Shown here piece by piece: positions 10,766 to 47,947 of a stretch of DNA of 64,000 bases. The DNA lies in contig OZ076409.1 in assembly GCA_964187785.1 (NCBI GenBank), positions 10,480,001-10,544,000 of the forward strand, given 5' to 3'. The DNA is from Amphiscolops sp. MND2022 (lineage: Eukaryota). The translations under genes were made by a program, and so were the position numbers. The stretch's first letter is position 1; every line of letters starts with the position of its first letter. The notes below the pieces were generated by a model, which was not told the DNA's origin, ran no database searches, and saw only the letters and a program-made list of their open reading frames with translations.

Positions 10766-10845
10766 GCCCATTATCACTCATCCGGGAATCATCCCTAGTA
10801 TGGTGATTGTGTGTTTTCAGCTACAGCCCACCCAGCCTTGACTCA

Positions 10846-11852: not shown

Positions 11853-12001
11853 TAATTCCTCCCTCAAACCCTATACATATACATTGTTCAGAGATAATCA
11901 ATCAATGGTTTTGTTCGAAAAGTCTCCGTTGTTGAAAGGTAAAAGATTTTTTCTTTGCAGAATTCATCCAAGTCCAAATATTTCCTGTTTTCTTGCATAA
12001 A

Positions 12002-13352: not shown

Positions 13353-16300
13353 AATTGCCACGCCTACGTTTCAGGGAAAAAGCAAATGCGTGGGCGTACA
13401 CCATCAAGGATTCCCCAAATCGATTAGAAAAAGACTTCATGACTGAGTGTAATGGAGAACCAACGCAAGACTGGCAACCACGTTGCAATGTTGGCATAAT
13501 CCAACGCCACAACGTCCGACACCAAGACGACTCAAAACCTCTTCCTCGCTGGATAACGGAGTCACCGGACAACTACGCTACACTCAAACGACCTTTACCA
13601 GAATCGAAAACAGAAAATATCTACGTCTATGACACGGAATATAAATGCGATCCATGGGACGAACCGACATTCTATGATGCAATTACACTATCCTTTAACA
13701 TACAGGCTCCACACCCACAGAATCAATCAGAAGCAGCACCGAAATTCCCCACCTCTGTCACCCATTTCGAAAATGTTAGAACCAACAGCGACAGTACCCG
13801 TCATTGTAACGTCTACACCAATAAACGCAAAGGAGAAAATTCCACCGGAGACAAGACACTGTGGTCACAAATGCTACGGAAAAGAACAGTCGACACCTCC
13901 TCTCCCCCACCACCACAAACTGCACCTGCCACAGAAGCACCCGACAGCAACGAAGATACAACGGAATGGCCACCACCCTTACACTTAGACGTCATCAAAG
14001 AATTCCTTCAACATGACAAAGACGACAACTACATTCCGTTGATGTCAGCAATTGCCCTCAAAAAAAGACGAGAATGCTCTTCTTACCCGTCGAATTCAAT
14101 GTCAATATAGACGCGTTAGTAGACTCAGGTGCGTACATCAATGCCATCAGTGAAAGGGATGCTGAAAAAATCAAGCACAGTGCAAGCCAGTGCATCTTCA
14201 ATAATGCACTTCTTCCCCCTTTCAAAGTTCAGTACGCCAATGCAGAACTCGAACAAACCCTAGCAACGTACTTAATGCGGTTTGAATTTGGCTATTACAC
14301 CTTTGAAGAAACGTTCATTATAATGACCCAGACATCCTTTTCAATAATCGGATTGGCGTTCCTACGGAAAGACGCCGCTATAATCGCTACAGCCCAAGGA
14401 AAAATAGACTTCCCAAAGATTCAAATCACGATGGCACTCACGGACGAAATGCAAAATGTAACCCGAAAACGATTACCTCAAAAATTAAAGCAAGTCCACC
14501 ATACCCGCACAGTCCACTAGTATCATACACGCGAGAAAGTACAGCCCCTACCACAGTTTGACGAGTGTGCGAAACGCATTGTATCACCGGCAGTAACAAC
14601 AGCCAGAGACAGTTGAGTAGCCATCAAAATCGCCAATACATCGCACTTTCCATACACAATAAATCACAACACCAAGCTAGCCGAATAGGCAGCTCCTGAA
14701 ACCCGAAAAAAAACGAAATTTATCCGAACAGTGGCCATAGCTGCGCTAAACCTACTAAAAGACCATGACGACGTTGTCATGTATATCAATGCACTAAAGC
14801 AAGTCGAACGCCCTGACGATAACGAAGAAATTTTCTGATTCCAGACACCAGAAAACACTGGCAACGAAGACGAACACTCCCCGATACAAACACGAATCCT
14901 TAAGGAACTACGACAACTATCCGAACGTGAAAAACTTTACACATCAGACGATGAAGAATCCCGAGACAAGTTCCTTTCATTGTTTAAAAGACCTGATTCA
15001 CTAATCAAAGGAGAGGACAGTGAAAACCTAGAAGCTACAATAGTAGAAATCAATGAAATCTTTGCTCGACATAGAAATGACTTTGGCATGAACACGCAAT
15101 TCAAAGTCAGTCTAACACCAAAAGTCTGTCTACACGCAGAGTCTACCAGTACCAATCAACCTGAAAGAAGACCCGACGGTAGAACTGGCTCTCATGCACA
15201 GGTACGGAATCATCACGTTGCTACTCTTCTCAAAATATTCAAGCCCAATCTCCGCCCAACGGAAACCCAACGGCAAATTGAGACTACTGGTGGATCTGCG
15301 CAAAATCAACGCACTCAACGCCGATGACTACATCAACAACAACTATTTTATCAGCACCATCTCAGATGCCGCACAACACCTGGCTGGGAAAAAAACTGTT
15401 CTGCACACTCGACTGCTCCCAAGCCTAGCACTGCCTCCAAATGGCAGACCAAAGGTCAGTTGAAGTATTTGCTTTTAACTTTGCTAGTAGGACGTTCGCC
15501 TACCGTAGACTAGTCCAAGGACTCAGCAGGTCAATGTGTGCCTTCTCGAGCTTCATGCGTGAATACCTGGACACAGTAATCAAAGCCGACCAGTGCGCGC
15601 AATGCGTTGACGACAATGAGATCGCCGCAAATACCTTGGAGCAGTTAATCAAAAACATCAGGGCAGTCTTCAAGTGTATCAAAACAGCCGGTCTGAAACT
15701 TACAACCGAAAAATGCCATTTAGGAGTAAAACATTTAGAATTCCTCGACAGAACTATCATCCCAAACGGAGTAGCGCCGCAAGATCAGCAGGCCAAAACT
15801 TTTGTCCTGAAGTCCGTTTCCCAAAATCAAAGAAGCAAGTACAAAAACACATCGGCGGTGTGAACTACTACCGAAACTACATACCACGACTCTCAGAAAA
15901 ACTCATCGATATGGATGAACTTTTAAAAGCTGATGCCAAAATTACCGTCTCAGAAGAACTCGTTGACAGTTTCAAAGAAACCAACGCCAGTCTAGCGGGA
16001 GCCTGCGGACTTTCCTTAAGACAGCCCAAAGCTGGAAAACAAAACGTCCTTATGACGGATGCCAGCTTCCGTGCATTAGGTTATGGGCTCATGATAGAGA
16101 AAAACGGTGAACGGAAACTCCTGTTGAAAAAAAACAATTGCGCTAGTAGCGTTCGGATCCCGCGTGTTCTGACCATCCCAACTGAAGATGTCAAAATACT
16201 GTGAGGAATATCTGGCTATAAATCAAGCTTTCCTAGATTGTAGTCACATTTTATGGGAAAGGACCATACCTACGTTAGTGCTGACAGACAATCAATCAGT

Positions 16301-21620: not shown

Positions 21621-21918
21621 GAAAAATAAACATCAAGAAAGTCAAAATCGAGAAAGAAATGACTTTTTGAAATAATGACGTCACGTGGACGTAATTCTTT
21701 TAAGGGAAAATTGATGACGTCATAACGACGTAGCTGAAGAAGAAAAAAAAGATTAAAACCAAACCTTTTCCCTTCATATTTCTGCCAATCACAGCGCAGA
21801 CGGAAGCAAAACGCTTTCAAAAAATTAAAGCGGACCGAAACAAAAGAAGGAACTCAACGAAGGAAAAAGAAAACTCAAACGTCCATTTGTCGTCCAATTT
21901 TCTAGAAAACAGCTTGAC

Positions 21919-22686
21919 ATGTTTAAATCCTCCATAAAGCTAAATGCTCATTTGCCCTCATCACAAATGAACAATATTGCGCTCGTATTCGACATCTCCG
22001 CGGATGAAGAGAACGATCGCTACAGTACCCCCATAAAAACGCTACCAGTAAAAATGGTGGGAAGAATGGATCTGAGCGACTCTTCCGTAGAAATTTGGAG
22101 AAGTAATGATGTAGAGCTGAATTTGTCTTCGTCCTCTGCATTAACAATCGAGTCACTACATTCTCCGAGAAGAGTGAGCTTCGCTCCAATAAGAAACAAC
22201 GAAGGAGAAACGTTCATAGTGGAACAGCCGCCTAGGGACACAGATGAAAACTTCTATGAAGAACCGGACTCGCCACGTCAAGTACCTCCATTGCAACCCG
22301 CGCCGATCCTAAGAGATATCACTATACTGCCTCCAGCAAACTACGTCCCCCTTACGAAAATAAACATACTTAACGACCTCAGTGAACCCCCCAGAAGGAA
22401 GATAGAAGAAACATGGGGGCTAAACCGGAACAACGAAGAATACAACGCGACAGCTGGCCGTAGAAGCAGTTTCAAGTCAGCCAAGCTACAGAGGAATCTG
22501 AAACAGAACATAACGGTGCTTAAAGAAATATCTCACTGCTCTGGACTGCCAGCCTTTGTACGAGAGGGCACCTGTCGCGACAAATTCCTGGTCGTTGTTT
22601 CTCATGTTTCTCTGGCATACCGGGTTTCGGGAGGGGACGTGGACATGGATACATCAAGTATCTGTAAACTAATTCAATTTAACTAA
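21919..22686 (+). CDS. Extra sense ORF of element A (255 aa, acidic/Pro-rich, unknown function), overlapping the 3' LTR
   Basis: Open 255-codon frame in the same position as B's ORF 47112-47947; crosses the PPT and LTR start at 22573. Confidence 0.6.
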   Translation: MFKSSIKLNAHLPSSQMNNIALVFDISADEENDRYSTPIKTLPVKMVGRMDLSDSSVEIWRSNDVELNLSSSSALTIESLHSPRRVSFAPIRNNEGETFIVEQPPRDTDENFYEEPDSPRQVPPLQPAPILRDITILPPANYVPLTKINILNDLSEPPRRKIEETWGLNRNNEEYNATAGRRSSFKSAKLQRNLKQNITVLKEISHCSGLPAFVREGTCRDKFLVVVSHVSLAYRVSGGDVDMDTSSICKLIQFN

Positions 22687-24419
22687 TTCTACTTACAGTA
22701 AAGCTAAGTCTTTGTAGATAATCTTTCTGAATGCGAAATCCAACGTAAGCGTTACGGAACAACTTTGGAAATGATTTAGCTCTAGCTAAAATTTCCGGTT
22801 TAAGCTTTTACTGGTGATCACTTTCATTTCAGTCTATTATTTGAAATCCACATGCTGATCTAAACACCAAAACAGAGACAAATTACGTTACATAACATTA
22901 GCTCATTTTTCCATCCTGAAAGGAAAACATAAACGCTAAAGTTTAACTCAGTAATCCTAATGGAATTCAAACAATCTAAAATGGAAAACACACAAAACAG
23001 TATAGGGGTTATTTCCCAACTTCAAAATAGTTGTCAAGGTTCACTTAAATTACAGTCAAGTAAGTTAAGAGAATAATCACAACGCTACGACAGCGTCACC
23101 CAGAAGAACTAGTAACTGGTGTTTCTAATTTTACGGCCCAATAACGTCGCTCCTTTAGTTGAGATATTTGCGCTTGCTCCAAAAGGCGTAATTTTTTTTG
23201 ACGTCATTAGCTGAGAGAATGAAAATGGCTGCCTACGCGCTCCGCTTTCACTCTGCGAACTGCCACTCAGGTATAGCGACTCTTAATACGTACGGAGCAG
23301 TTACGTAGCGGATTCTAAAACTGTAACGACGAAATGAATTTTTGAATCAGGTTTGAACTGATTTCTTGAAGAAACGACGCATTAAGGGAAATTTAGAAAT
23401 AGGAGTTTATATAGTGAACGCTGTACTGTAAAGAAAGATTAAAACCGCAAACTCAGCAATTAAGGTTTATTTTTGTAATCAATTTCATACTCAATTGGTA
23501 ATGGTATAATTACGCTCATCTCACGTTGCAAACTCCATTTTTTGAAGTATAATAAATATCAAAACATCATAGTTCTAGTATAGTATACGTTTCTTATAGA
23601 AACAAAAGGTTTCCGTTATTCGCCACTAATAATTTGGAAGATGTACTGTTTCGTCATAAGAACGAGTTGTTTCTGTTGCTATCATGTCGTGTCTGAAGTT
23701 ATGTCAATTGGTTTCCGTTGCTATTGCGCTGTGATCTAGACTTGTACAAAATTCATAGCACAACAAGTAAATTGGGTAATTTGTTGATGTATGAATGTGT
23801 TTTGAAGTATTTCTTCATGTTTTCGACAATAGATAGTTTGTGTTATTCTAGCATCTTTTGTTCCATCCATATTTCATACTCTGGATGTTTGATCTCAAAA
23901 GTATTTATTCCGTTCCATCCGCGTCATCATTTTTGAGTGTCAAACTTTTGCCTTGAGATTCAAAATTCCCAATTTGGAGAATGACTAAGTGATCACGCCG
24001 GCGTATCTTCGTTGAGGAAATTATTGAGCGAACCTTATTATTGCCGCCATTTCAAGACTAAACAGGAAATCTGCTAGCATGAACAAAAATGATATCAACA
24101 AGTGTTACGGAAAACTAGTGGAACTAGAAATTTCGATACCTAACTTTATAACGTGGGACTGAAATGATTTGGGAAATTGAGTATTTTTAGTGAACAAATC
24201 TGATTCTGATGATATTTAGGATTTTTTAGATTGAGGAACAAATGATGCTAAGAAAGTATATATATGTTGATTGCTTAGAGTTAATCGTTCAATTGTTTTG
24301 TTCCAATAATAGCCGTTGTTGAAACTTAAAACGTATTTTCTTTTAAGAGTTCATCCAATTCCAAAGAAGTCTTGTTTTCTTACATTAAAAGACAGCAAGA
24401 AGCCAGAAGAGAAAAACAG

Positions 24420-25980
24420 TGTCACAGTCCGCGCCCGGACTGGATTGAATTAAAAGCAAACTAAAACTAATATAGGTCACCGCTTCGCCAATACGATTGA
24501 ATTTGCGTCGCGACTACGCTACGTCACAGCTATGGCAGCTAGCTAGAATTTCATTCCATATTGTGACGTCAGCATGTCGTCTAACTTGGCAGCAAGTCAG
24601 AAGTTCATTCCAAAATGTGACGTCAGCATCTCGTCTAACTTGGCAACTAGCTGGAAAGTATTCCAAATCAGACGACGATATGACGTCACAGCTATGGCAG
24701 CTAGCTAATTTTCATTCCAAATTTACGTCCACTATAACTGCGGACTAAGTCTAATACTAATACGTACGTCCACGTTACGTCGCAAATCCATCAAAATAGC
24801 TGTTTTAATCCATCCAAAACACCACATTGACGTCCACGCGACGTCCACTATAATGGCGGACTAAGTGTAATACCAAATTTACGTCCACTCTACGTCCCAA
24901 TTTTATAAAATTAGGCGTTTTAGTCTGTATTAAATTTAAAAGAAGCTTTATTTTACTACGGTAAAACTAATCGAAGCTAGAATATGAATCAACGTCAACA
25001 CTACGTCGCAATTTAACTAACCAAACCAAATTTTGAATCTACGTCAGTATTGCGTCGACTAAGATTCAATTCGAACGGAACATGGTATTTAAGCCAGGAT
25101 TTTTCAGATTTACTTAAAATAACAGTGTTTGAATACGATTTACATTGAAAAGTCACAGTTTATATTCAATTTGTGTTAATAAAGTGAAGTCCAAGCTGGA
25201 TTTTAAATGTACGTTTTGACTACCTAATTTCATAAGTTCATATGCTGTTTGACGATGTCACGTCGTCTTTTGTTGTTGCTCAAAGGTGTTGCTCCTAACT
25301 TTAATCAGATAAATATTTATCAATTGTTGGAATATATAATTGTTTAGCCTCATGTAAATCAGTCACTCTCTTAGCATCACCAAATTGCCTAAATCAAGAT
25401 AATTAGTCATAATTTTCTTCAAGTGGAAATTCAAAATCAGGTATTAGTTGTTCACGTCAGCGTCATCTCCGCGTCGGTTTCTTACGAACCAAAGCAGAAA
25501 AACGGGGAAGTATTTCCGCTTTGACAGACTGAAGTAATATCTACTTCCTGCTTGGGAGGAAACAAAAGGACGCCGGAATGAAATGATATGATCATGATTG
25601 ATGTCTAATACTAGATTAGAATTGCCGTGTCTTAAAAATTGACGAAATGCTGACGAAGATCAAAGTTTTACCGCAAAATTACAGGAAGTGACTAATATCT
25701 CGATGGAAATGAAAGTACGCGAGTATGAACAGATGATGCTAGGAGGGTATATATAGCTTGTACCTGTAAACTTTATAATTCAATTTCTGATTCAATATGC
25801 TGTCTTGTATCAAATTCTACTTTGTTTTGTTAAAACAATTACTCTGCAAACTCCAATTCAAAATTGATAAATCCGAAAATCTTTTCATCAAGAGAAGCTA
25901 GAAAAGAAGAATGTCCTTCAAAAAAGCAACAAAAAAAATCAGAAATATACAGAACAACGACCCTAACAGGAGTCGTAACA
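24420..25980 (+). mobile_element. Solo LTR (1561 bp) of another family, inserted in A's 3' LTR
   Basis: TGTCACAG...GTCGTAACA flanked by the 5-bp TSD AACAG (24415-24419, 25981-25985). Removing it restores the sequence seen at about 12020-12045. Confidence 0.9.
24520..24900. repeat. ACGT-rich internal repeats of the solo LTR
   Basis: ACGTCACAGCTATGGCAGCTAGCTA x2; TTCATTCCA...GTGACGTCAGCAT.TCGTCTAACTTGGCA x2; ACGTCCACTATAA...GCGGACTAAGT x2. Confidence 0.85.
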
Positions 25981-28042
25981 AACAGTAACTGAGTTAGTCT
26001 CACGAAAGTTTGAGAATTCAGGAGTTGAGAATAATCAGCCTAAAAGTCTTGTTGCTGGTCCCAGCAAATCACGTATAATTCCACCTGAAAACTTAGACGA
26101 GGTAAAAACTTCTTTGACATGACAAAAGTCCTAGCAGTAAACCAAAAGTAAATGCTAAAAATCATAGCACCTATGACTATAAAGCACTCTGACTACCATT
26201 CCTGAGAGAATTTTGATTTTGAATCTGAAAACATCTCCGTAGCTCGAACGTCTACCCCTGTAAAAACAAAAGCGACTACTTCCAAAACAACCCCGGTGAA
26301 TAGTCGTAACAAAGGTTAGACAGTTTGAACAAGGCTGATATTGACAATATAGTGTGAAGACAAAAATTTAAGCTAGAAATTCTCCCATTTTTCTAACAGA
26401 AAGGTTTTCGGAACTTTGCTCACGCAGTTTCGACTTGTCTAATTGACAAATTTTAGAATAATGATTTTTGTGTGAAATCATTTGGGACTCACGTCCTTAC
26501 AAGTTCCGGGCGTCTAAGGGTTAAAATTTGCACTTTTGCGGTATGTACGCATACTTTCTTTGTGAAACAATACTCATGTAGATGTACTTTTTTTCCTTAT
26601 TCATGTGGTTTTTGGATAGTTATGCTAGTAACCAGAGAATCAAGAATTCGAGAAATTTGGTGACCGATTTTATAAGCTACTGAAACTTTGTATTTGATAG
26701 CTTCTTGCGGGTTACTGGTAACTATTTCAGACCGCAGAGTGGAAAGTATAACGATAAAACGAAGTTAAAACGTGATTAAGGAATGTTTGCATTTCATTTC
26801 CTTCAGTAAATTAAAAGCAGCACCAAAAAAAGAAGTTGTTTTTTAATGAGAAAACTAATGATGGCGATTTTGGGGTTCAGGCGAAATACGTTAAGAGCGC
26901 CATATGATTTACATTGGAAACTCCATAATCGAAAACAAACTAAATGGAATTGGGTTGATGAAAGTTTCATGAAGACAACTGAGTCGATATGACGCTTGAA
27001 TGTTAGCTAAAAACTAAATAGGAAAGTGCACAATTCAGTGTTTTGTTTAATATCATAACTGAGCCAAATAAAAAGAGTCTTTGTAAAATTGCTTTCTTAT
27101 AGGGGTTTGTAAATATAGCATGTGCGTTACATGAAATACAGAACAGAGATTGAGAGTTTGTACTCCTTTCAGAGGATCATCGGTGAAGCAATTAGTTGAG
27201 TGAAATATACATTTATGGAGCTATATGACTTGGCTTTGTTTTAAGAGTTTGGCTTTGTTTGAACGATGTTTGACTTGTAATCAAACGCAAACGGTCTGAA
27301 GTATGTGAAAAACATGTTATGGAAAGCCTTCATGTTTTTAGTTTCCAATACATGCATAGCATGCTTCTACACTTTCAGTGTCCTCATACTTGTTGTAGTT
27401 GACAATCACATCCGTCAGGTTTAAAAAATGCAAACAAATAGCTAGATAGTCTAATAGTGAACCAGCTCATATAATAAACTGGGTTATTAATTTTTCAATC
27501 TTTCAGAAATCAAAAAATTGAACCGAGTAAAAATTCATTAGTATGCTGTTAGGAACGTAATGTATGTGAGCCGATGCGACGTTCAGATAGAGCAAAAAAA
27601 CAGTCAGATACGTTGAAGCTGAATAGAATCTCCGATCAAGCTATACAGTAAGCTATTGCGACTCCATCGTTTGAAAGGGGGACTTTCAAATCCAAATATT
27701 TTAAAAACTGTCTTGATAACAAACAATATAAAGATCAATGAATCAAATTAAAATTCATCAAAAACATCTTTCGATTCCCATAAGTAAGTAGCTCGATCAG
27801 CAGAGTAAAAAATGAACAGCATTATATTCCGAAAATTTCGAAGCGCGTCGTTTTTAGTCTGCGCTTTTATTAATAAAAGAGCCCGACTATTACAGTCACT
27901 CGTTTTTTTTTCTTTTTTTAAAGACAGACTCGAAACGACGAACGTTAACGTTCAACTTAAGGAAAGTAAATACCAGGGAAACGCATCTAAGTTATTCCAA
28001 GGGGTCTCCTTTGGTTTTTTACTTTTTAAAGGTAACCTATAA

Positions 28043-28188: not shown

Positions 28189-28649
28189 TCATTCTGTTTT
28201 ATACATTTTATTCACATCTTTCTACCATACAGTTGGATTCAAGCTTTTGTTATTTCTGAGTGTTGGCCGTGGGAAATGAAAAACAAATAATTTTGCTTTT
28301 TGTTGTACAAGAGGTAAAATTTCCTTTGAACCGATTTAGCGACGTTACCTTTCCCGTCGAGAATTACCCTCAAATTTGAAACTAATTTAGCAATCACACG
28401 TTTTCTGAGCTGCACTCTATATAATGTATCTTACCAGGTAGTAAATTGTAACACTTTATCCATGATTGAATTGACGGTAAGCAATCTTATTACCTTAAAT
28501 TGCAACGTTTTGTTCCAATGCTATACTTCAAACAAATGTTGGGCACATGAAGATATTTTTAACCTCATACAATGCATTTTGTAACTGTAGAAAAGTCACA
28601 CAGTTGACAGAGTATTCAACCCTTAAAAACTTATCTTGCAAAAAGCTGA

Positions 28650-30376
28650 TGTCGCAGGCGGCCGCCTGCGATGGCAACGTCTATACAATTGACCATTCGA
28701 AGCCAATTGCCCTACCTGGGACACTCCCATTATAAAACTAAAACTTTCAAACATTCAGTATTATTTTGAATATGTAATGTTGAGTGATGAATTGTTTTAT
28801 TATTCTTTATGTAAAATACATTTGACAGCAAGCTATACTGACAGGCGGAAAGGAAACGTGTTCAAATGTTTGCCTGTCCAGTATAGCTAGCTAAGCCGTC
28901 CATGGTCAATTGGCAATTCAGAGTGCAGTTTATAACAGCCATCTTATTACTTATTACGTAACTGCGCTAGTAGCTATTTAGAATGGACCAATACGGCCAA
29001 TTAACTTTGCCGGCCTTATTATGCTTTGAAGCTATACTTGAATAATATTCAGTAATTACAAATAGGACGAAAGCGGCTATGTGACATAGCTGTCCCTAAT
29101 CACTGTACTAATTGTCTTGGTACTATACAGTAAATAAGGCCTATCACGGCCAATTGACGCAATAAGCATTCAAATGCTGTATACCTATTATATGAAATTG
29201 GTGTCTCAATTAATTACTGATTGAAAGACACAAGTAACCCCCCATGCAATGACCAAACATGTATATTGCTAACATGTAGTGTTGCTTTCCGTGTTATGAT
29301 TGGGTTTGAATTAGAAAACCCTAACGGGCAATAGCGGTATGGGGTCTTCTTGTACATGTTCAAATGTAATGTTGCTCTGCGCTGTTAAAAGGAACTATAG
29401 GTCCTTTCCAGCTACTCATCAGTTGTGTTATACATGAATTCTATCTACATGTAAAAGTGTTTGCATATAGTATGCTGTATATGAATATCATTACCTATTC
29501 GTCACATGGCCTAATAGGGCACTTTGGTCTACCCGCCTTTATATGACCTTTGTGACGTAACGATGCTATTTTTAGCAGTGACGTGTCATATTTATAACTT
29601 GTAAGGTATTTTTAGTAACATGACAGTTAAAATTATGAGTGTCATGGTAACTTGGATATAAATACGCCCAGCTTGACCCTGACACAACAATTGTCTTAAT
29701 AATACGGTTATTGTTCAGTTGCTCTTATACATATTGTACAAGATTCACTGTGAAGCCTAGTTAATTTTGTCCACAGGAACAATTCAAATATTTACTCCTG
29801 GATAATCATCTTCAATGCCCTCTACAAGGAAACAAAAGTCAAAAGCCAGGAAATTGAGAGAATTAGATATGTTGTCCGACTACTGCAACATGGACGTAAT
29901 GTTTGGTGAAGGAATTTCAAACTCAATAGAGAGAGAACTAGATAGCCTAATTAATGTCCCAGAAAGGCAGCAAGGATTTCAATCCTTTCCTAACAGAGAA
30001 AATTCATCTCAAGAGAATGAGATCAGAGACATCGATAGTAGAAATGAGCCTGTTAGAGAAAGCAGGCTAGTAGAGTCATATAACATGTTGTCTGCAGAAA
30101 TGAATGCTAGGATGTCACGTGAGATGGAAACCATGATGGACCTAATGCAATCACAGATTAGCAGGGCCATTAGTTCTGCCATAAGTGAGAAAATTATCCC
30201 AGAAATACAAAACATGGTGGAACACTTGCCTTTGAGTCAACATGGCGTTGAGCCGTGTACGTCCACAAATGAGGACGGAATTGGGAATGTATGGAAGAAC
30301 GCAAATACGAAATTTACAAAGAAGGACTCAAGGTCCGCTTGTGATCTGAGGGATCATATGGACAACACTCCTTACA
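28650..30376 (+). repeat. 5' LTR of element B (1727 bp)
   Basis: TGTCGCAGG...CTCCTTACA, highly similar to 47862-49600; TATAAATA at 29657-29664. Confidence 0.95.
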
Positions 30377-31506
30377 TGGTGACAGGAGCTAACGAACTCC
30401 AACATCCGATTCCTGAATTCCTCACAGGACGAATTCACTCTCAGCCAGACCTTCAGAGACAAGAATCCGCGCATGATACAACTCTGGATACAACTCTACC
30501 AGTGGCGGAGCCCGTTACAACTGAACAGCCACAAGACCCCATCAACCGACTGACCGATGTCCTGGTAAATCTCCAGAACAAACCACTGACAATGACAATT
30601 AGACCAGTCACTACGAACCTCATGACATTTGACGGCAAATCAGAAAAATTTGAATTGTTTGAAGGCTTATTTCATACAATGATCAAGATGCAGCCAGCCA
30701 TGACGGAACAAATGAAAATAAACCATTTTCATTCATTGCTCCGAAAAGGAGCCCTGCAAACTTTCCGAAATATAAACTCTATAAACCGTCAAACACTGGA
30801 AGACGTACTCGTCATTTTTCGTCGCAAGTACGTTAAACCCGAGTCTCAAGCCACGGCCAAACACAAGTGGCAAAGACTCATTTTTAACCCCAACACAATG
30901 AAACTACCCGACTTCCTCGAAGAACTCAACCAGGGTGCCAAAAAAGCCTTCGGGAAAAAGCATGATCGATAGCCTCTTATATGCTAAGTTACCCCCAAAC
31001 CTCAAAAAATGCATGAATATGGCCCGACTGGAAAACGGGACCTACGAGGAGATTGTGGCACATTTGGAAAGAGAGCTTGAATTAAACGCCTTAGAAGAAT
31101 CTGACGGTCTACCCATAGCCACAATGGCGTCATCGTCAGGCAAAACGAAAAACCTATAATCCACTGGCATTGATTCCAACCAAAATAACAAATGCTCATA
31201 CTGCAAGGCGGAAGACCATTTCTAGAAAAATTGCCCAAACTGAAAAAGAAGAAGGAATTGGAGAGCAAAAATGGCAAGAAGCCTCAACGCCCAACTTATC
31301 CAGAATGTCCCACCTGCAACAAAACTAACCATCCAGCAGAGAAATGCTGGCGTGGTGCAGGTGCCCACCTTCGTCCAAAACATATTAGAAAGGACTCCAA
31401 CGATACGGAGCCCCCTCGAGACGAAGACACCCGCACTGAAAACGAAAAACCAACAACATCTACACCAGACCAATCCAACTCAAAAAAGCCTGATTCAAAA
31501 AACTAA
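29815..31506 (+). pseudogene. gag: gag of element B (frameshifted after codon about 380)
   Basis: ORFs 29815..30972, 30935..31159 and 31192..31506; TFDGKSEKF capsid-like motif; knuckle CPTCNKTNHPAEKC; ends SKN*. Confidence 0.9.
30377..30388 (+). promoter_or_regulatory. Primer binding site of element B (lies inside gag)
   Basis: TGGTGACAGGAG immediately after the LTR end. Confidence 0.9.
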
Positions 31507-34148
31507 TTTCGCCACGACTCCAAATTTCTGACCAAATGTCGATACGACAATATGTCATATCGGACCCAGCTAACATCGCCTACAAGCAATCACAGAGTGA
31601 CATCAACGGAACACCATCAGTTGTCTGGCAGCAACAGATGGAGAAAGCTTACATTAAAACGTACAAAATGGTCCACAACGACCGCCAAGACAGATACTAC
31701 GACATAGACTACACTACAGCTTTTGAAACACGATTCAGACCACTTCAACAAATCGAAGATTATGACCCCCACTATATTGATCGTGAATAGGGAGTCGATC
31801 CATACTGGGACAATTCCTTCTACGACCAATGAGAACTGCAATTCAAATGTGACGATCATCCGCCAACAGACGACGAGGATGACCCCGAAGTCCTAGATAA
31901 CAAGCTAACGAGGCACTCATCGAATTGTGGCAACCTAACTCTGAAATCATCAATGAGCAGGAGATAGAGGATCCAACTATTGAAAACGGACAACAGTCCG
32001 AACCAGGCCTACTGGACGAATCAGCTTTCTTACATGTCCTAATAACAAAAGAAGGAGAACCAGCGTACATACCCTTATCCACAAACCTCGGACTCAAATA
32101 CAAAAAACGGATGCTATATTTCCCGATGGACTTTGGAGAACTACTAATAGACGGCCTCATAGACACTGGAGCCTTATCTAGTCAATTCCGGAAGCAGACC
32201 TCAAGAAAATACGCCTATTGGCGCCTCAATCCATTGTCAAAGAAGGTCCTGCTCCAACATTTCAAATTATGGTCGCAAATGGACAATTGCAAACCCCAAA
32301 AAGCACTGTTGAAGTTAAGTTCGAGGTGGGAGATATTGAATTTCATGAAATATTTTTGGAAATGGAAAAGCTGACTGGCCCCATCATAGGACTAATGTTC
32401 CTTCAAAGGAATCACACAGTCCTGGACATGCGACAAGGCATCCTTAGTTTCCCCTATTTCTCCATGCAACTCAAAACGGCTGACCACAAATACTCTAACG
32501 TCTTGGAACCTATTCTTAACCCAGACGATGTCACAATACCACCCAATGACCGTACTCTAGTTGAAATCAAATCACAAATCTACAATGAAAACACGGTCAC
32601 AGGAGTGTTACAACCCAGTGATCTCCTACATGAGGAGGGCGATATCACCTTTTGTGCCGCAATAGTCACATTGACTAATGGAACCGTTAATGTCCATATT
32701 AATAATTTCTCAGATCAACCTCACAAGCTTAAAAGAGGACTATACATTGCAAACTTCTCAGTACTAACGCCAGAACAGATGAAACACGTTAAACCAATAG
32801 ACCCGGTGTCCACTTGGCATCTTCTCAACGAAAATGAAGAAGACGCGATCTACTATGTCAGTAGTCCACTCAAGGCCAACCGAAACAACGATCAATACGA
32901 ACAGTACTGGTTTCCAACACCAGAGAACCCAGGGGACGAGGATTCCCACTCTTCTATCCAGCGACGGATTCTTCAAGAACTACGCAACCTCCAAGAGGCC
33001 GAGCAACTAAACCCTCGAAACGATGAGGAGTCACGACGTAAATTCCTTAGCAACTTTGACTGGAAAGACTCGATGCTACACCAGCACGAAATCAAAAAGA
33101 TTGAATCGCTCCTAGTCGAATATCACGACATATTCGCCAGACACAGATTTGACATATGAATGAATGAAGAATTCACAGTCAAACTAACTCCTAAGGACGA
33201 TTCGCCTGCATATAGCCAAAGTCTTCCTACTCCAGTCAATTTAAAAGAGGACATCCTCGTCGAACTGGCCCTTTTGCACAAATATGGCATCATAACTACA
33301 TTGCCATTCTCTAAATATGCTAGTCCAATATTTGCACAGAAAAAGCCGAATGGGAAACTGAGACTTTTAGTCGATTTAAGGAAAATCAATAACCTTTTTT
33401 CAGATGACTATATAAATAACATTCATCCAGTTAGCACCTCAACGGACGCCGCACAGCATATGGCGGGCAAGAAATTATTCTGTAAACTTGACTGTTCACA
33501 GGCGTACCATTGCCTTCCAATGGCGGACCAAAGGTCCATTGAGATGCTTGCGTTCAACTTTGAGATGCTTGCGTTCAACTTTGCACTTTTGCTTACAGAA
33601 GACTAGCTCAAGGCCTTAGCAGAGCATTATCAGTCTTTTCAAGTTTTATGCGAGAATACCTCGATAAAGTCATCAAAGCCGATCAATGTGCCCAATATTT
33701 GGACGACATCGGCATAGCTGCCAATGACGCCGATCATCTTATCAAAAATTTGAGAGCATCGTTTGAATGCATCAGACATGCAGGCCTCAAGCTAACAATG
33801 CACAAATGCCCATTTGGGACAGCGGAAATTGACTTTCTAGGGAGGGCAATCACCCCTGGAGGGCGTCAAACCACAAAAAGAAAGAATAACGAACTTCCTC
33901 GAACAAACCAAATTCCCAAAATCCAAGAAAGCACTACAACGATACCTTGGATTCCTGAACTATTACAGGAACTACATTCCAAGACTATCTGAAAAACTAG
34001 CCCCTTTCTTCCAACTTCTCAAAAAAAACGAAAAATTCCTAGTGACCACAGAGCTAGTACAACAATTTAATGAAATCAATCCAGACCTTGACGAGTGTAG
34101 TCAATTGGCTCTTAAACAACCTTTACCGAACAAACAACTAGTCCTCAT
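31497..34148 (+). pseudogene. pol: pol of element B, 5' part (PR, dUTPase-like insert, RT)
   Basis: LIDTGA; KKPNGKLRLLVDLRKIN; KLDCSQAYH; QYLDDI. Confidence 0.92.
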
Positions 34149-37100
34149 TGAAAACAAATGATTGGTGTTCAAATATATATTAAAACCCCACCACAGACAT
34201 ATACAAAACTGAATTCAAACACAATGAAATGTCACAGATTCCCGGTAAACAAAACTAAAAAATGTAGCGCATCGTCACCAGGCAACAGCCGAGTTAGTCA
34301 AAAGACTCTGGCGTCACTAGGATCTGACAAAGGGAAAAACTAATTTCTCAATTTATTCAAAAGTTGTTGTGCCTTTCGCTTCTGCTTTGCACGTTGTTTG
34401 GCTGAAGGCTTGTTCTTCGACTTGCTTCTAGTTTGCTGTACAAGTTGCCGTAAATTGTGCTGGTATTTCAGTACAGTAACTATCAAATTCAGATGCAATT
34501 CGACAGAAACATCTGAAGAAGAAACATCAATTGTCATACTGAAAAATAACACGTTGAAGCGATTGGCAGGGGATAAATTAACGATAAATGAACACCATTA
34601 ATGAATAAAAAATATTGGTAGATTCATATATTGCTAACTGTTCTGGTGCAGACGATTGATAAAATTAGTCATGTGAATCGCAAACACCATCAATGAGCAA
34701 CTTCCGAGTTAGTCAAAGGACTCTGGAGTCGCAAATGATGACGCCTGTCCAACACCGATAATTCGTTCCAGATTGCCATAATTAGCGCTTGTTGTTTTCG
34801 TTAAACAATCCGCAAGTTGTTTACTCGAGGCAATCCAATTAAGTTTCAATTTCTTTTGTTCGTTCACTAAGTGTTTCAGATGACTCATGTCTTGAACAGA
34901 TTTTGTAGACTTCACCGCATCAACCAGACTTTTGTTGTCGACATAAGCAATCTGTGGTAACTTTTTTTCCAGTCAATTCAGTAATCAACTTTCCCACAAG
35001 AAAAGCAGTGTCGCTACCATCAATAGCCGCCATTGTTTCCGCAGCTATAGTGCTTCTGACCACTCTTTTAATCCTTCGACTTTGCCAGGACACTGCAACA
35101 GCTTGAGACTTCTCATTTCCGATGAGGAGAACATGTCCTCCTTGGGTTCCTCCGTCAGGCAGATTAGCCCATGAGGCGTCCGAAAAACTGAACAGAGCCC
35201 AGTTCTCCATCGAACCAAGATTTCGAATGAACATGTCGAGTCGCCTTCCTGTCTTCACTTTTCGGATTAGCTTATTCAATCTCGCAATATCGCTAACAGT
35301 ACTAATATTTATAATTCCAGCTAAGAATGTAACAGAGAAGCTGATTTCGGGCATACATTGCATGGCAATCCAATTTAATTTACCAATCATCTCACGCATC
35401 TGGTCTATTTCAGCGTCGGTGGTGTTATCATCCTTTGGACAATCTTTTCGCACGGCGATTTCCTCCAATTTATTTGCGTAATCGCCCATTGAGAGTTTAA
35501 TCCCCTCATCAGTTCGAGATATGTCTAATTTCAAGTATCGATATGGAAACTTCTTTCTTGAACCTATCGTGAACACAGTGGCTAACTTTTTCACAACGAG
35601 TCGAAAAAATAGGTCAGTGCCAGCAGTCCAGAAATCGTCTACGTGCACACATATAATGCCTTCCAGATTTGTGCCCTTTTTCCAGTAAAACAACGACGAA
35701 TCGAAGGAAGACATTTGACATCCAAGAGAACTTAATTCATTCAGTTTTGACTCTGTTATACCAATGACGCGAGGCATCCAAAAGTCCATAAACACTTTTC
35801 TTCAGTTTCCACAAGCACGTATCATCCCACTCCTGAGGAGGAGCTAGATAAACAAGTCGTGATAGCGACTCCCCTTGAAGAAAAGCCGTTTTGACGTCCA
35901 AAATTTCTGTTTGCCATCGTGCTGTGCAGCTAAAATTACCAGCAGAGTGCGGAAAGTTGCTTTGAAAAATGTCGGCCAATCTTTGGTTTGTTCTGCTTCG
36001 TTTCCCAAGAAACCTCTAGCGACTAAGCGGGCTTTTCTGCTGCCGTCGTCCTTTACCGTTAAGATCCAACGTGTAGTCACTCTTGCTTGCCCTTCATCAG
36101 GAACACGTTCAAATACATCGTTTTCATTCCAACTTTGATATTCAGCCAATTTTGCTTCGTGGAAGTCATCATTCATGGTAATTAAAGCTAAATTTGTATT
36201 TTCTGCCTCGTCATAGGACCATTCAGAAACATCGTTTTCAAAATCCACTGGGCCTGTTTTACCAGCCATCGATTCCGGGTGCGTGTACTCAATGTTAGGC
36301 CAGTTCTTGTGTTTGCTTTTCGCTTTTCCAGCACGACTTAGCACAAATCCTTTGAAATCATTTCCATGATCATATTCGTAGACTGTTTTGAACGTGACAT
36401 TTGATTTTGTACCAGGAATTTTACCAATTCTTGACTCTTGTAAGCTTTCATTGTCGTTTATTTTTGAGGTTTGTTCCTCAGTGATTCTATCCTCGCCAAT
36501 TTCCTGTCCAGAACAATCTGTTGGAACCGAATATTCCCGTACTGGTTCTCCGTCCGAAGAACCGACGATTTCCGATAATTTAGTTTCACCGAGATCTTCC
36601 TGATCCGATTCGTGTTGCATGGAGTCGCCAACTGCGTCAATACCAGTGTCGCCTTGTGCTATACGAGCCGACTTCGCTGGTACTGGTGCTGCCGATGCTG
36701 TCTTTACGCCTCTCAATCTTGTCCTGTGTACCTTGAGAACGTATCCACCATGTTTCACCAGGATATTCGTGCCATCAACTCCTATCACTTTTCCTGGTCC
36801 CTTCCTTTCATTGGCATTTTCTCGTTTATAGAACACTGAATCACCAGTATCAAAATTTTCTTCTTTGCAACGAATATTTGCTCGCAATGCTCGTCTTATT
36901 CGATCTGCATTTTTGGACTGAATGTAGGCCTCTCGTGTTTTGTGTAACGTAAATAGGTAAATTCTAATCACATCCGAGGTTGTGACGTTTTCCAAGGCTG
37001 GTAGATCTTGGTCGAGTGTGCTGGGTAATCGTGGAGCATACCCGCTAACAATCTGCTGAGGAGAAAAACCGTCTTTATTGGAAAGACAATTTTTTTGCAA

Positions 37101-39082
37101 ACGAACAATACTTCATCAGGCTTGAATCTGGTATATCCCATGCTTGGTCTGCTTTGAGCTTCAAAAATATATCTGTCAATACTGCATTATGTCGCTCACA
37201 AACACCATTTGACCATGGGCTCTCGGCAGCTGTCGTTTTTATACGGATTCCGTAATTCTCCGTCATTGATCGAAAATGCTGGTTGTCGAATTCACCTCCA
37301 TTATCTGTTATGGTACTTTGTGATACACCAAAATCGCATATCCATTCAGATATGAAAGATGCTGTTATTGTTCTCGGTGATTTGTCATATATAATAGCTG
37401 CACGACTGTATCGGGAAAATAAGTTTGATAAAATGAATGTAATATACGCTCAGTTTCAATTGATGAAGATCCATTGCAACAACCTCGTTAAACTCGGATG
37501 CTAGTGGCATCGATACTGCAGGTTTCGGTTTCGGACGTCCAAACTGCAAATTTCGCAATTATCCACGATTTCTTGAAAATCGTTACGTTTTGCTACGCCT
37601 CCGGCGTTTGTTATTAGTCTACATAAACGATCAACACCACAGTGTCCAAATTGTCGATGTAACTTATTCATCTCTGTCTTGTCCAATGCCTTCTTTGTAA
37701 ATAGAACGTTTGGTCGAATATTGTCGGTCGAACTAATGTCAATCCCAACATGTCCAGTGGACAATTTTACCAGTGAAACATATGAGCCATTTTTTAATTC
37801 CAAAGTGTCCGTAGAAAAATTGAGTTGAGTACTCATTAACGATAAAGATTTGATACTGATCAGCAATGGTATATTTACCGGTACTATCTCAACCGATATA
37901 AAACAGTTGAGATCTCCAATTTTGGCAGGTATCTTGACATTTCGTCTACTGAAAACTTCCTTGCCATCACCAAAAATGATAGATGTCTTGTCTGGTCTAC
38001 ATTCGTTAATTTCAAAACTCACTGACGATTTGAAAGCTTGGTACCATGGTTCTCCGGCGACCGTCATAGTACATCCGGTGTCGATAATTCCAATTTTCAT
38101 ACACTCCTTGGTTACCGACTCGGGTATCGTAGCGAATGTTAAATAACCACGCGGTTCTCCCTCTTCTTTTTTTGTTTTCTGGATTTTCGCGACAGTCACG
38201 CTTCTAATGATACCTTGATCCGCATATGGAACATCTTGTGATATACCCATTGTTGTTTAATGGGTTCATGCCAGTTTTTTGTCTTCCTCGATAATTTCCT
38301 CTCATATTTCCTCTTTTGACAAAGGGTCGTCCACGAGTCCCTCGTCCTCTACTACCCCAATAACAGTTTTCTTCGATTTCTTCATTTTCAATTTGGTGAG
38401 ACTCAGTAGTTGTCACGAATGCCGGTTCTGATTTAATTTTCGGTGCGTCTGGAACCTCGCTGACTGCGCTACTTCCAAATATCCTTCTCAATGCCGTCTT
38501 CATCGGTTCAAATTCCAATTTTGAAGTTGCAGAAAGCGCCATTTGTCGCTCTTTAACGTCGAGATTTGCGCAATATAATATCTTGCATGCCAATACTTCT
38601 GTCGGTGATTTTATCCCCAATGAGGTTAAATCGTCATTCTGTCGTTCAAACTCTTGCAAATATTCCACCATGCTTTTAGTGCCTCTGTTAATCGATTCAA
38701 ATTTCGAGTACGCCTCAAAAATTCTCTCAGTGTCGTCTTGTCCAAATGACAATTTCAATTTGTCTAGTAATGTTTTGAGGCCCTCATCTTTATTAAGATC
38801 TTCAGCTTTGATTTCAAGTGCAATCTCGCGTTTTCTTCCTCAGTGCGACTACTGGTTCGCGTTTCTTTTTATCCAGTTCTGTTATTAACGCCCATAATTC
38901 CATTTCAGACTTCCAATTTTCGAATGACTTCCCATCTTCCCATAGTGGTGGGGTTTTCAAACTGCTGCTTGACGCCATGTACCTCCTGCTACCATGAAAA
39001 CAAAAGATTGGTGTTCAAACATATATTAAAACTCCACCACAGACATATACAAAACTGAAATGAAACACAATGAAATGTCACA
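34149..39082 (-). mobile_element. Ty1/Copia retrotransposon (GalEa-like), complete but frameshifted, nested in B
   Basis: 88-bp LTRs at 38995-39082 and 34149-34236; TSD CTCAT; PBS TGGTAGCAG (initiator-Met-like). Order: gag (CSICGSRYH), PR (IIDTGC), IN (HRQFGH...CEIC, SPWSNGVCER), RT (KARLVARG, LDVKTAFL, VHVDD), RH (FSDASW, QLADCLTK). The clade call is from motif recall only. Confidence 0.95.
34709..38977 (-). pseudogene. Copia gag-pol polyprotein (fragmented)
   Basis: Track ORFs 38204..38758, 37501..38250, 37075..37266, 35844..37100, 35737..35979, 34920..35795 and 34709..34915 tile the canonical Copia domains. Confidence 0.92.
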
Positions 39083-41958: not shown

Positions 41959-44900
41959 CTAATTGAGTTTTTTCCCAACAGAAGTTGATACCGAGGAAGC
42001 TCGTGATGAAGTGGAAACACCCACAAGAGGGACTCCCTTGAAACTTATGAAAGAATCAGTCAATGTTTTCAAAAGGGAAGCACGCCCAAAGACGTCCACG
42101 TGAGACCACGGGTCTCCAGATAACTGCCCCGAAGTGAATTGCAAGTCCAATTTTTTGTACTTGGCTAAAGCAGATTCAGAAGTACAAACAGCAATGGCAT
42201 CATGACAGTAGGCCAAGTAAGACTGTGCGGGCAGTACAACACTTGACAGACGACAATGATAGCCTGAGGTATCCACATCCTGGATATTAATTGCTGGAAG
42301 ATCTTGATGGCTCTCGGTTATACAGAGACAGCATAAACGGTATAAATGAAACAAATTAGTACAACTCCGGAGGGCTGGCATAGGAGTGAGAAGTTGGAGA
42401 ACATCGTGAATGGTAGCAGGAGCATCTTTAATACCTGAATAGAATTTCCGGAAATGATCGACGAACTCAATGTACTCGTTTCTATATTTCTGCATCGCAC
42501 TTTCTGCTACCCACCCTCGGAGTCGGAAACTGTTGAAAAGTGCATTGAAACAAAACGTAACTTGGTCCAGAGGTAAAGAAAGTACCAAGTGTGGATCGAA
42601 GCAACCCATTCCATTAAAGATATCAGCCGTAAAATGGATATCACGCAGCATGGTTTCCAATAAGGACACGACGTAAGTGCGGGCCTTCACCAAGAATCCT
42701 TCCTTCTCGGTTGCAACAAGCTCTGCCAAGTTGGGGGGTCCGGTTTTCCTATCAGAATATGATCGGCGGACCTTGGAACGGCAAACTGCTTCAAGATCAG
42801 TGTCAAATTTGAGCCGGCTACCAAAATCCCGAGTGGACAACAGCCTGAGGTCGTCTGGACAGAGGTGAAGCAGCCCGGTCCAATTAGTGTCCTCGGGAGT
42901 ACATTTAGGCAAGACGGCGCGAGACCACAATTTTCTTACGAAACGACAGTACTGCCCAAAGATGAAAAGGGTAGAATCCCGTCCGTTGGACAGACTGCGG
43001 TCGAAGCACTTTAGATCTAAACATCCCAACCAATCAGTGAGATTTGGGATGAGGATGCAATACCTTGTGACAACGTAGGCTGCCCTAGTTACAAATCTGA
43101 AGAACGTCTTTAAAAATAGGGTCAAAAGACAAGAAAAGGTAAAAGAAGACGACTCACAATCTCGGACCAGTATGGACAAGAACTCAAGTTTGGCGGTAAA
43201 CAGATCGTCCATTATGATGGCCCACTCCAGACTCTGGGGCTAAAAAGAATTGATAAATTCATGATGAGGACCGATAATGAAGTCGGGTTACCCGAAAGAG
43301 ACAGTGGGACATCATCGACTTATCAAGTAAAACCCTAGGTGGAAATCAGAGCAAATTACCTTATTCTAAACTCCCTGCATCAGCTGAGTGGGAGCTATCT
43401 TAGTCATATACTCCCTGATGGACGGCCAGTACTTGACAAGGTCTGAGCACAAAGAGGGGATTCTCTTGAAAATCAGGTTGCATCTGGTTACTGCCTACAA
43501 CAAAAGAGACTCAATTAACTTGGGACTTTGGGCCGTCGTAACGTGGGATCCTGAGAGATTTATGTACTAGATGCAATGAACCCAGGAATAGAAACCAGCA
43601 GAATTAAACCTTCTTGAGTTCTGGACACTGAAGGGCCCATGGTTGATCAGTACAACCGTTCAGGAAGGCAACCAGGAAGGTGAGTTGGGCGAAGATGTCT
43701 ACTGGCCCAAAGACGTAGCAAGACTCCAGGACGCTAGGGTGCATGAGCTTGCGTAAGGAAAAGACATCAAATCTGAATGGGTACTGGATTCCGTAGTCAA
43801 ATAAGCCAGATGACTCTAAAGCTTAGAATAACATCGACGTGCAACCAGAGATGCTGACCAAATTGGGCTTTAAAGATATAAAGGAGAGGAGAGATGAAAT
43901 CGCACCCAGATAACTAACAGGGGTGGATTCAAGCAAGTCGTGGCGGTGAAGCTCGACTCGGACGAGAGAGTCTCCTTTCCAAAATCTAATGGACATGCAG
44001 CGAGATCTACCTTGGGTGGTGAACTCGATAGAATACATGTTGGTCGTACAGACGTGTTGGGCAATGTCCTCGAGTCCACGTGTGAAGACGTGATGGAAGA
44101 TTTTCTGAAACGAAACAAAGCACTTGCATACACTTGAAACATGGAATTACTACCGCCAAGGGAGGGACATAGGGAAGAAGACCATGTTGGAGAATACCTT
44201 ACGGTAAGACTAGCTGAGCTCCAATCGAACGATGAGAAGAGGGCTTGGTGGTTCGTGAATGAGCCAACTCTGGTCCACAAACTCTGAAGTAAAGCCAAAT
44301 TTCCATCGTGTGGCACAAATGACCCAATGAGAGAGATCAAGGTCGTGAGCCTCAAGTCGTCCGGGTTAGTGATCCCACCCAAGCTGGCAAGATACTCTTC
44401 GTAAAAGGGAAAGTGATCTCCAGCATCAACTAATGGAACATCAACGAAATGCGGTTTTTCTCTCTCTAACTCCAACGGCGTAAGGACGTAGGCGTCCTTT
44501 CCTCTAACTTGGTGCGTGACTACTCCTGTGGTTGAATCAGTTTCTTGCAGGTGCACGAACCTCCACTTCTGGTCTCTCCGAAAATGACCCTCAGTTCTAT
44601 AATGTCTCAGGATCTCACGGGCTCCTTTGGAGTAAATAGACACATTTGTCTTACCGAGCATGCAGTAAAACTTGTATTTATTATGGATGGGGTCGAGCGT
44701 TCCAGTAACAAAGGTTCTTGTCCATTGGATACCTTTGAAGAAGGCATCCTTCATTACCTTCCCAGGCTAACTCATGAGCTTCCGGCGTTTACGTGGGGGA
44801 CTGGCCTTGTTGTCGACGGATCTCCTTCCGTGTCTGAGGACGGACAATGGCTGATAGTCAGTGGGGCTGTATCCACTTCTTGATGCGGGGGTATGGCTCC

Positions 44901-45930
44901 CAGATTGGTCCAAAGCTCCAGAGTGTCCAACTGCTGTTCCCACTGTGAAAAGGGGATCAGCCTCATTTGCAGTTTCAGTTTCCGATATCGAGCCAAGGGT
45001 ATAAGGATCCTCGTCTGAATTGACGGCTCCGCTGGTATACCCGTCGGTAGTATTCCCACTCGGGTTGGTCTCATCCCCTGAACTCTCAACGAAACCTCTG
45101 GCATGGGTGGAACATCGCCGTGGGAGGCCTTTGCGCTTGTCCCTTGAGACCCCTAGTGTAGCATGAAGTAGAAGAGACTTCATCATATGGTAAGAAGACA
45201 AATCTGATTCATCAGCTATCGTCTTGAGAATAGCGTGCATTTCATCGGCATTGAGAGCTATAGTTGGATGACCAACTGGTAGATTGATGGGTCGAACTTC
45301 TTGAAAATACTTCTTTATGGTAGCTTTCCCTTTCCCAGATAATTGCCTATCTTCGGCCAAAAGCTTTGCCCGGTATTGAGCTTGCTCTGCGTCACTTTGA
45401 CCAGACTCACTGTGAAAGTCACCTTCGAAATCTGGAAATGCTTTGGGTTCAATGGTCAAGCTGGCCGGGAAGGCGGGGAAAGCTTCAACTCCGGAACTGT
45501 CAAACAGCTCTTCGACGTCACTCGTGTCAGCATACAAGGATTTTGACTTGTTTTCCTCAACTGGTCCAGCTCGGGCGGACGTCTCAGGTTGGTCTTCTTG
45601 GGGATCCTGGAGGACAGCTATGGGCTCAGAGATGGATACTTTGTGGAAGGTCAAATCCGTTGTTCGCGCAACAGCAACTGATTCTAATGTAGGCTGAAAG
45701 GTCTTAATTGTCTCAGTCTCGAGAAGCGCCAAAGAAGTTGCAGTTTTTTCAATGAAGGCAGAAACGCTTTCGTCTGTAGATCTGCTACGGTGAGAATCAT
45801 CAGGCGAAGGCCGGTTACGGTCAGTTGACACAACTACAGACTCAGTCGCTTCGTTCTCTCTCTCTCTGGATTATCTCTCCTCTGGGGCTTGAGGTAAAGT
45901 GGGTTCTGGCAACTCCTTCTGACTTGACAT
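41959..45930 (-). pseudogene. Antisense spliced BED-finger/hAT-transposase-like cargo gene of element B (about 1165 codons, four nonsense codons)
   Basis: Predicted exons 45930-44203, 44104-43610, 43494-43360, 43239-43158 and 43016-41959, all with GT/AG ends and consistent phase. Basic patch PPRKRRK; BED-like W...FYCML(G)K...RHYRTEGH. Candidate 5'UTR intron at about 46128-45933. Confidence 0.8.
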
Positions 45931-47111: not shown

Positions 47112-47947
47112 ATGGCCGCCCTATACCCTGAAGACTTCCAAGGCGCAGCGCCCGCTGGTGTAGACATAATCTGCCTATCTAGTGACGAAGAGGAGGAAAT
47201 GTATGACCTGAGCATGATTTCGGTGCTAGACCTTCAATTGTCATCGGAAGACGAGGAAATAGACGACGAAATCATGATGATGCCCCAATGCGTCGAGATG
47301 CAATTATCATCGCCCATCCCAGTACCTGGTCCTCCCTCAACACTGAAAATTAGAAATGAAGCCCCCCAATACAGCTTACCAAGGTACGGGACCTCCGGGA
47401 CGAGCTTTACAGCGAGGCCTACCCTTGACCAATCCTTTTCTCATTGGGGAGAGGAAATGGCCCAATACGGCGAGACGACCGAGTGCGCAACAATCATCCT
47501 ATCAAACTGTGTAGGGAAGTCATTCCCATGGTGGATACTCCTATGTCGCCCCCACCTGAAGAGCAAGGACCAACTCACGAGTTTTACTCAGTGGACGGTC
47601 AAGGCGGAACTTCCCAACAGTCCTTGGACTCGATTACAAACCATTTTCAAGGAATGGGAATTGAGACGAACAATCCAATGGCAAATTACTCAGACTGTGT
47701 GATATGTGGGAAGACGACCTTACAAATCCAGAGTGAAGCAGTCACAGATTATTTGCGCAAGACGGCCATTTTGGGAGAATCGGCAGATCACCTAGAAGCG
47801 CGCAAAAGAGTTTTAATGGAAGCAATGCAGGTGGGCACTTTCCTATTACTACCACGGGGAGTGTGGCAGGCTGCCGTCTGCGATGGCAACGTCTATACAA
47901 TTGACCATTCGAGGCCAATTGCCCTACCTGGGACACTCCCATTATAA
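47112..47947 (+). pseudogene. Extra sense ORF of element B (one apparent frameshift), overlapping the 3' LTR
   Basis: 47112..47702 and 47444..47947 overlap in different frames; DIICLSSDEEEE acidic motif; CVICG; the last about 28 codons lie in the LTR. Confidence 0.6.

Follow-up and report, generated by a model that had tools for sequence, protein, structure and literature searches.

An LTR retrotransposon of Amphiscolops sp. MND2022, element B, begins its gag gene deep inside its own 5′ LTR, reads through the primer-binding site (PBS) and continues into the capsid. The best explanation, which we consider probable, is that the LTR-resident codons form a conserved N-terminal domain of Gag whose translation from the 5′ LTR is very likely, and that the copies of this domain in 3′ and solo LTRs are likely to be a by-product of reverse transcription. 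The window, a stretch of 64,000 nucleotides of contig OZ076409.1, holds element B together with a second element, A. The features of both are listed in Table 1.

Table 1. Features of elements A and B, with positions counted from the first letter of the window
Feature	Position	Strand	Basis or remark
Element A, 5′ LTR, holding a gap of N and an insertion	8646-12297	+	
Element A, PBS, 12 nt identical to that of element B, read as (M)VTG after N	12298-12309	+	
Element A, 3′ LTR, carrying insertions; its copy of the gag start is decayed	22573-26311	+	
Element B, left target-site duplication GCTGA	28645-28649	+	Abuts the 5′ LTR
Element B, 5′ LTR, 1727 bp, TG...CA	28650-30376	+	Self-comparison of the window
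TATA-like box, 158 nt upstream of the gag ATG	29657-29664	+	Sequence only
Splice-acceptor-like motif, 38 nt upstream of the gag ATG	29765-29776	+	Sequence only
LTR-resident gag part, 187 codons and the first base of Met188	29815-30376	+	
Basic conserved N-terminal block, codons 1-31	29815-29907	+	Mean pairwise identity 0.69, 9 families
Long amphipathic helix spanning residues 80-136, predicted to form a parallel coiled coil	30052-30222	+	pLDDT 85-98 by block
Element B, PBS TGGTGACAGGAG, translated as (M)VTG	30377-30388	+	Directly 3′ of the 5′ LTR
Internal gag part: linker, two-lobe capsid, two zinc knuckles	30377-31506	+	Capsid fold from relative P0020
Purine-rich tract ahead of the 3′ LTR of element B	47850-47861	+	
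Element B, 3′ LTR, TG...CA	47862-49600	+	Self-comparison of the window
Element B, right target-site duplication GCTGA	49601-49605	+	Abuts the 3′ LTR
Tandem duplicate: 3′ LTR lacking its first 235 nt, with 1.5 kb of flank	51116-54102	+	

The gag start within the LTR

By the features of its gag and pol sequences, element B is classed as an LTR retrotransposon of the Ty3/gypsy type. Its direct LTRs, which have TG...CA ends and are 96% identical in the self-comparison of the window, are accompanied by a target-site duplication, a PBS and a purine tract. The order of pol is protease, reverse transcriptase (RT), RNase H and integrase, with a protease-like DTG near 32160, RVT_1 at 33160, an integrase zinc finger at 39898 and rve at 40277; in its broken frames only Integrase_H2C2 and zf-H2C2 exceed the Pfam cut-offs, and RNase H was placed by means of the translation and a weak match in element A. 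Comparison of the RT with solved structures gives only weak HIV RT rows, which are of no use for the clade. Since Gag matches DUF1759 in Pfam, a family that we take to belong to BEL/Pao, the clade placement is left wide. Both elements may resemble acoel repeats.

The 5′ gag frame of element B is itself broken near codon 385. The capsid fold was taken from P0020, an unbroken relative of 567 residues, whose model, of low overall confidence (mean pLDDT 55), has a long helix at residues 80-136, with a helical stretch following at about 280-430. The top structural rows of P0020 are all retroelement capsids, at Z 8-9, and include copia CA (Z 9.2, rmsd 2.7, 87 residues aligned), PEG10 (Z 9.2, rmsd 2.6, 85 aligned) and Arc (Z 9.0, rmsd 11.2, 148 aligned). 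Foldseek places PNMA2, HERV-K and Arc first, the best E-value being 0.018 (PNMA2) and no row reaching E ≤ 0.001. The Atlas rows give Ty3_capsid/Retrotrans_gag at 0.93, and there are matches to the CCHC knuckles.

The gag ATG of element B lies 562 nt before the end of the 5′ LTR, and Met188 is made up of the last A of the LTR and the TG of the PBS. One phase of the junction reads Y-MVTG, while a second reads W-stop. These positions, and the frame that runs across the junction, bear out the preliminary description, in which 187 gag codons were placed inside the 5′ LTR and the PBS was read as protein. The 561 nt of gag within the LTR have no stop in the gag frame, whereas the other two forward frames contain 14 and 18, and none of 20000 base shuffles of this part left a forward frame open. 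Chance opening of the frame is ruled out by these counts. Over the LTR's upstream 1 kb, no stop-free run is longer than 65 codons.

The stretch between the TATA-like box and the gag ATG is free of any other ATG. The LTR of element B contains neither AATAAA nor ATTAAA, Rfam has no match across 28600-31700, no tRNA gene was found in the 64-kb window, and the RNA structure across the LTR/PBS junction is not unusual (z -1.17). An A-rich, slippery-looking run just ahead of the gag stop (about 31498-31506), with a similar one in element A near 13345-13353, is a possible site of gag-pol frameshifting.

In element A the gag ATG, at 12002, is 296 nt before the LTR end. The preliminary description ascribed the same layout to this element; the ATG within the LTR and the N-MVTG junction stand, but the frame is not open to the junction, as it stops after 55 codons. 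Both LTRs of element A have a TATA-like box about 130 nt before the gag ATG. A splice-acceptor-like motif is found at about 11945-11958, and the motifs of the two families lie 38-44 nt before the gag ATG. Cis- or trans-splicing at such motifs could bring upstream transcripts into the gag frame.

Other open frames and insertions are found around these genes. A weak dUTPase match (32182-33159, E 0.0025, below cut-off) lies between protease and RT, and a copia-type element with 88-bp repeats (34149-39082, minus strand) is nested in the pol of element B. Antisense frames of 426, 298 and 367 residues (41959-45870, minus strand), with no Pfam match, occupy the region between the integrase and the 3′ LTR and could be accessory genes or a nested element. 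Sense frames at 47429-47947 and 21829-22686, for which Pfam likewise gives no match, pass over the purine tract and extend about 85 and 115 nt into the 3′ LTR; in both elements, both LTR ends may be coding. A match to an amiloride-sensitive sodium channel at 54084-54977 (minus strand, E 6e-21) is consistent with an animal host.

Conservation of the LTR-encoded part among relatives

One search for relatives gave 89 of them, of 211-674 residues. At the junction, 50 of them run into Gag, 34 run into unrelated tails, one reads the PBS in a shifted frame, and four are unresolved or have an earlier break, with P0051 (Gag) and P0075 (shifted) assigned by hand. The LTR ends of the relatives are those implied by the protein junctions, and no DNA loci for them were found in metagenome or viral contigs. 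In all 34 tailed relatives the first tail residue is Ile, Thr, Asn, Lys, Ser or Arg, that is, a residue with an A-initial codon (background 44% in the rest of the tails), which is expected from LTRs that end in ACA and are read in a fixed phase. This feature marks the 34 as apparent copies in 3′ or solo LTRs, and suggests that such copies are common. Four family A sequences that run into flank (P0094, P0096, P0104 and P0105) have Asn-Asn beyond the LTR end, perhaps a sign of a preference for certain target sites.

Long relatives number 184. Among the 120 listed, 109 fit the strict pattern of junction plus capsid, and 104 of these 109 have the junction Met; of the other 11, nine have the same junction with substitutions (judged by eye) and two are fusions. 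The relatives form nine families that are less than 60% identical in the LTR part, plus family A. The LTR encodes 171-217 codons of gag in the B-like families; for family A the figure is 126, and the frames of P0106 and P0108 stay open across N-MVTG at codon 126. The range for the clade is 125-217 codons. A profile search gave 1542 cluster representatives at E ≤ 0.001, the best of which were inspected. Judged from these protein sequences, a gag start deep in the LTR is a clade-wide trait.

Each block of Gag has its own degree of conservation. Across the nine families, identity is 0.69 in the tip, 0.22 in linker 1, 0.40 in the helix, 0.20 in linker 2, 1.0 in MVTG and 0.89 in the capsid. At the 14 positions predicted to form the core of the helix, 93% of residues are hydrophobic, compared with 23% at the other helix positions. 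In a neutral codon model of eight distant relatives, 7-8 stops are expected and the probability of finding no stop is 0.0002-0.0009 for each, although this test is inflated because protein matches are retrieved only when they are open. Mismatch BLOSUM scores are modestly above neutral, except in P0073, which is not above. The periodic conservation of hydrophobic residues is stronger evidence, because a constraint at the DNA level would not yield it. The preliminary description had made purifying selection upstream of the junction Met a measure of its reading, and at the protein level such selection is seen across families, in the blockwise identity as well as in the hydrophobic core. By these comparisons selection acts on the LTR part at the level of the protein in at least ten families, and this part is very likely a translated protein. 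In P0020, P0069, P0081, P0088 and P0231, the LTR part is only 34-48% identical while the capsids are 88-97% identical. Very fast evolution, or swapping of LTRs that carry the Gag N-terminus along, could produce this difference.

AlphaFold predicts a confident helix at residues 80-136, with disordered linkers on either side. In a structure model, three copies of residues 76-140 form a parallel coiled coil with a score of 0.44, compared with 0.01 for the best control; contacts agree by at least 86% between runs and the partner pLDDT is at least 75. Of 30 solved pairs, 21 attain the mark for this score, and of 23 single chains none does (7 of 16 for animals), a calibration that is only roughly valid for three copies and for animal proteins, and the copy number of three was our choice. 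The model supports self-association of residues 76-140. No Pfam family is above cut-off for the LTR part, and it has no clear fold match, the Atlas lead being only 0.75; such blanks are no proof of a new fold.

Repeated copies and their possible roles

According to the preliminary description, the gag start is repeated in the 3′ LTR and in a third copy. The ATG does recur, at 49028 and 52034, but the frame in the 3′ LTR (49028-49360) ends after 110 residues because an 11-nt insertion near 49347 shifts it. The third copy was rejected as an independent solo LTR, since it shares its flank with the 3′ LTR. It belongs to a 3-kb tandem duplication (48097-51107 and 51116-54102), in which both units have the same flank, diverged at 23 of 1506 positions. 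Only the duplicate has a full short frame among the window copies. This frame (52034-52600) is open for 188 residues and stops within the target-site sequence, only one residue being gained by read-through past the LTR end. The ratios of nonsynonymous to synonymous codon differences among the three window copies are 9:0, 18:2 and 15:2, and have no bearing on the parent lineage. The window copies are old and are decaying like neutral DNA after insertion.

In the tract 29486-30080, 23 of 27 variable sites are common to the 5′ and 3′ LTRs as against the duplicate, compared with 8 of 41 outside it, and within the tract the duplicate carries residues that are common in relatives. This pattern points to gene conversion between both LTRs after the duplication, or to an assembly mosaic.

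In retroelements the PBS fixes the LTR's 3′ end, and the stretch from the cap to the PBS is copied into both LTRs. Since the PBS lies within gag in this clade, the Gag N-terminus is duplicated automatically. Transcription of element B would start near 29690, about 30 nt after the TATA-like box, which would give an ATG-free leader of about 125 nt; minus-strand strong-stop DNA, of about 690 nt, would put the Gag N-terminus in both LTRs. The proposed layout, with a gag start 126-217 codons ahead of the LTR end and a frame that passes the PBS in a single fixed phase, could have originated either by movement of the PBS into gag or by upstream growth of gag. By analogy with the N-terminal part of LINE-1 ORF1p, the LTR domain is likely to be an oligomerisation or RNA-gathering arm of Gag. 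Selection would act through full-length Gag, and the 3′ and solo copies would then decay neutrally, some of them perhaps being expressed without consequence. Selection on the flank tails was considered and rejected, since their lengths are as in random DNA (mean 21.3 codons as against 19.7 from random DNA, for 19 tails with unextended starts). CA followed by TGG at the junction creates an ATG automatically, so a shorter Gag from Met188 may be a second product.

The preliminary description went further, in that every 3′ or solo LTR was held able to make a truncated Gag or a fusion with flank. The 34 tailed relatives agree with the presence of the frame in such LTRs, but the word "every" is too strong, because the copies decay like neutral DNA after insertion. 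A functional role for these copies would be that of a copy counter: transcription of 3′ and solo LTRs would run on into flank, and a stub of about 190-240 residues would join Gag oligomers and lower particle output according to LTR number. The putative stub has the basic tip and the coiled coil, without capsid or zinc knuckles, and since the LTR ends at a point between the helix and the capsid, it would comprise the whole interaction domain. The trimer model backs its self-association, and open stub frames are common (34 of the 89 matches). Precedents are described in two reports, in which a truncated LINE-1 ORF1p made up of the N-terminus with the coiled coil suppresses L1 in trans (PMC5605252; summarised as well in PMC10951436), and Ty1 p22 and Drt2 restrict through Gag fragments (PMC10951436). 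Ty1 restriction, however, relies on the capsid C-terminal domain, which p22/p18 and Drt2 contain and the stub lacks, since the stub ends at residue 187 and the capsid begins near residue 270. The stub copies in the window decay neutrally, and the abundance of the family, with its 1542 cluster representatives and 184 long relatives, means that any brake is weak. Should a signal located downstream of the PBS suppress the 5′ poly(A) site, the transcript of a solo LTR would end before the frame, and the position of the poly(A) site decides whether a solo LTR reads into flank. Overall, a copy counter is unlikely. We also regard as doubtful its most extended form, in which a whole self-associating Gag domain has moved into the LTR, each 3′ or solo LTR is a dominant-negative stub unit, elements count their historical copies through relics, and LTR exchange swaps the promoter and the Gag N-terminus together.

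The birth of new host genes by read-through into flank, with the LTR giving a promoter, a start codon and a foldable N-terminal domain, has very little probability. Predicted in-frame fusions such as P0295 (913 residues) and tails of 108-144 residues are in its favour; in P0295, the LTR-end junction runs into another sequence with a retrotransposon gag match in Pfam. The tail lengths, however, are as in random DNA, read-through in this window adds one residue, a Pfam scan of 20 relatives that are tailed or short gave no host domain (a single weak match stayed below cut-off), and the precomputed Pfam entries among the 120 long relatives listed are all retroelement families. It is also quite improbable that Gag is made mainly from the junction Met, with the upstream frame being a chance opening or an accessory product, for example one spliced as is CERV of Cer1. 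Acceptor-like motifs do precede the gag ATG in both families, extra frames lie near the 3′ ends of both elements, and CERV has N-terminal peptides and a leucine zipper in common with Cer1 GAG (PMC10309623). The junction ATG, present in 104 of the 109 strict-pattern long relatives, could be taken in the same sense, but it is a fixed consequence of CA+TGG. Chance is excluded by the shuffles and stop counts. In all families examined, moreover, the upstream frame joins the capsid in a single phase, a fusion for which a separate product would have no need.

Comparison with known retroelements

The usual view takes LTRs to be non-coding and regards solo LTRs as relics of promoters. If the 5′ LTR is translated into an N-terminal Gag domain, one stretch of DNA would make up a third of the LTR and also a third of Gag, the integrase attachment end and the PBS would double as codons, and strong-stop DNA would likely be about 0.7 kb. 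Each solo LTR would bring a ready frame, which gene finders would call an orphan gene. The layout allows a direct test of solo LTRs as protein-coding brakes in trans on their own family.

The likeness of the LTR part to LINE-1 ORF1p, which has a basic amino terminus, a fast-evolving N-terminal part and a trimeric coiled coil (PMC5940361), is one of analogy only. It consists of the basic tip, the variable linker and the predicted coiled coil; the tip is conserved (0.69) and the trimer model is above the mark, the oligomeric state being a predicted one. LINE-1 differs in being a non-LTR element, and its truncations arise from random stop codons, not from a repeat structure. Cer1 GAG, from a Ty3/gypsy element of C. 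elegans, has an N-terminal leucine zipper, a basic motif and a splice acceptor before its ATG, and the accessible text of that report (PMC10309623) does not place the start in the LTR; in elements A and B, splicing is represented by motifs only. The CRM centromeric elements of plants also have coding sequence inside the LTR, since their CR domain reaches into the 3′ LTR (PMC5818461, citing Neumann 2011). They are, however, the mirror case, in which the C-terminal end of pol lies in U3 and the repeated copy is without a start of its own. A plant survey (PMC6317226) and the report on Diaspora (PMC1142308) describe additional frames and long leader sequences that follow the LTR, and no gag start deep in the LTR. 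Exact-phrase literature searches of limited coverage gave no report of a gag start deep in the LTR or of a domain-sized gag segment in U5.

In Ty1, GAG starts in the LTR and overlaps it by about a dozen codons, compared with 126-217 codons here. The PBS of Ty1 is inside the GAG frame (PMC4974528), and self-encoded Gag fragments control its copy number (PMC4599808; further background in PMC5408680 and PMC4551931). The elements described here have the same type of layout, with the gag start in the LTR and the PBS translated, and they represent a real, clade-wide and apparently undescribed extreme of it.
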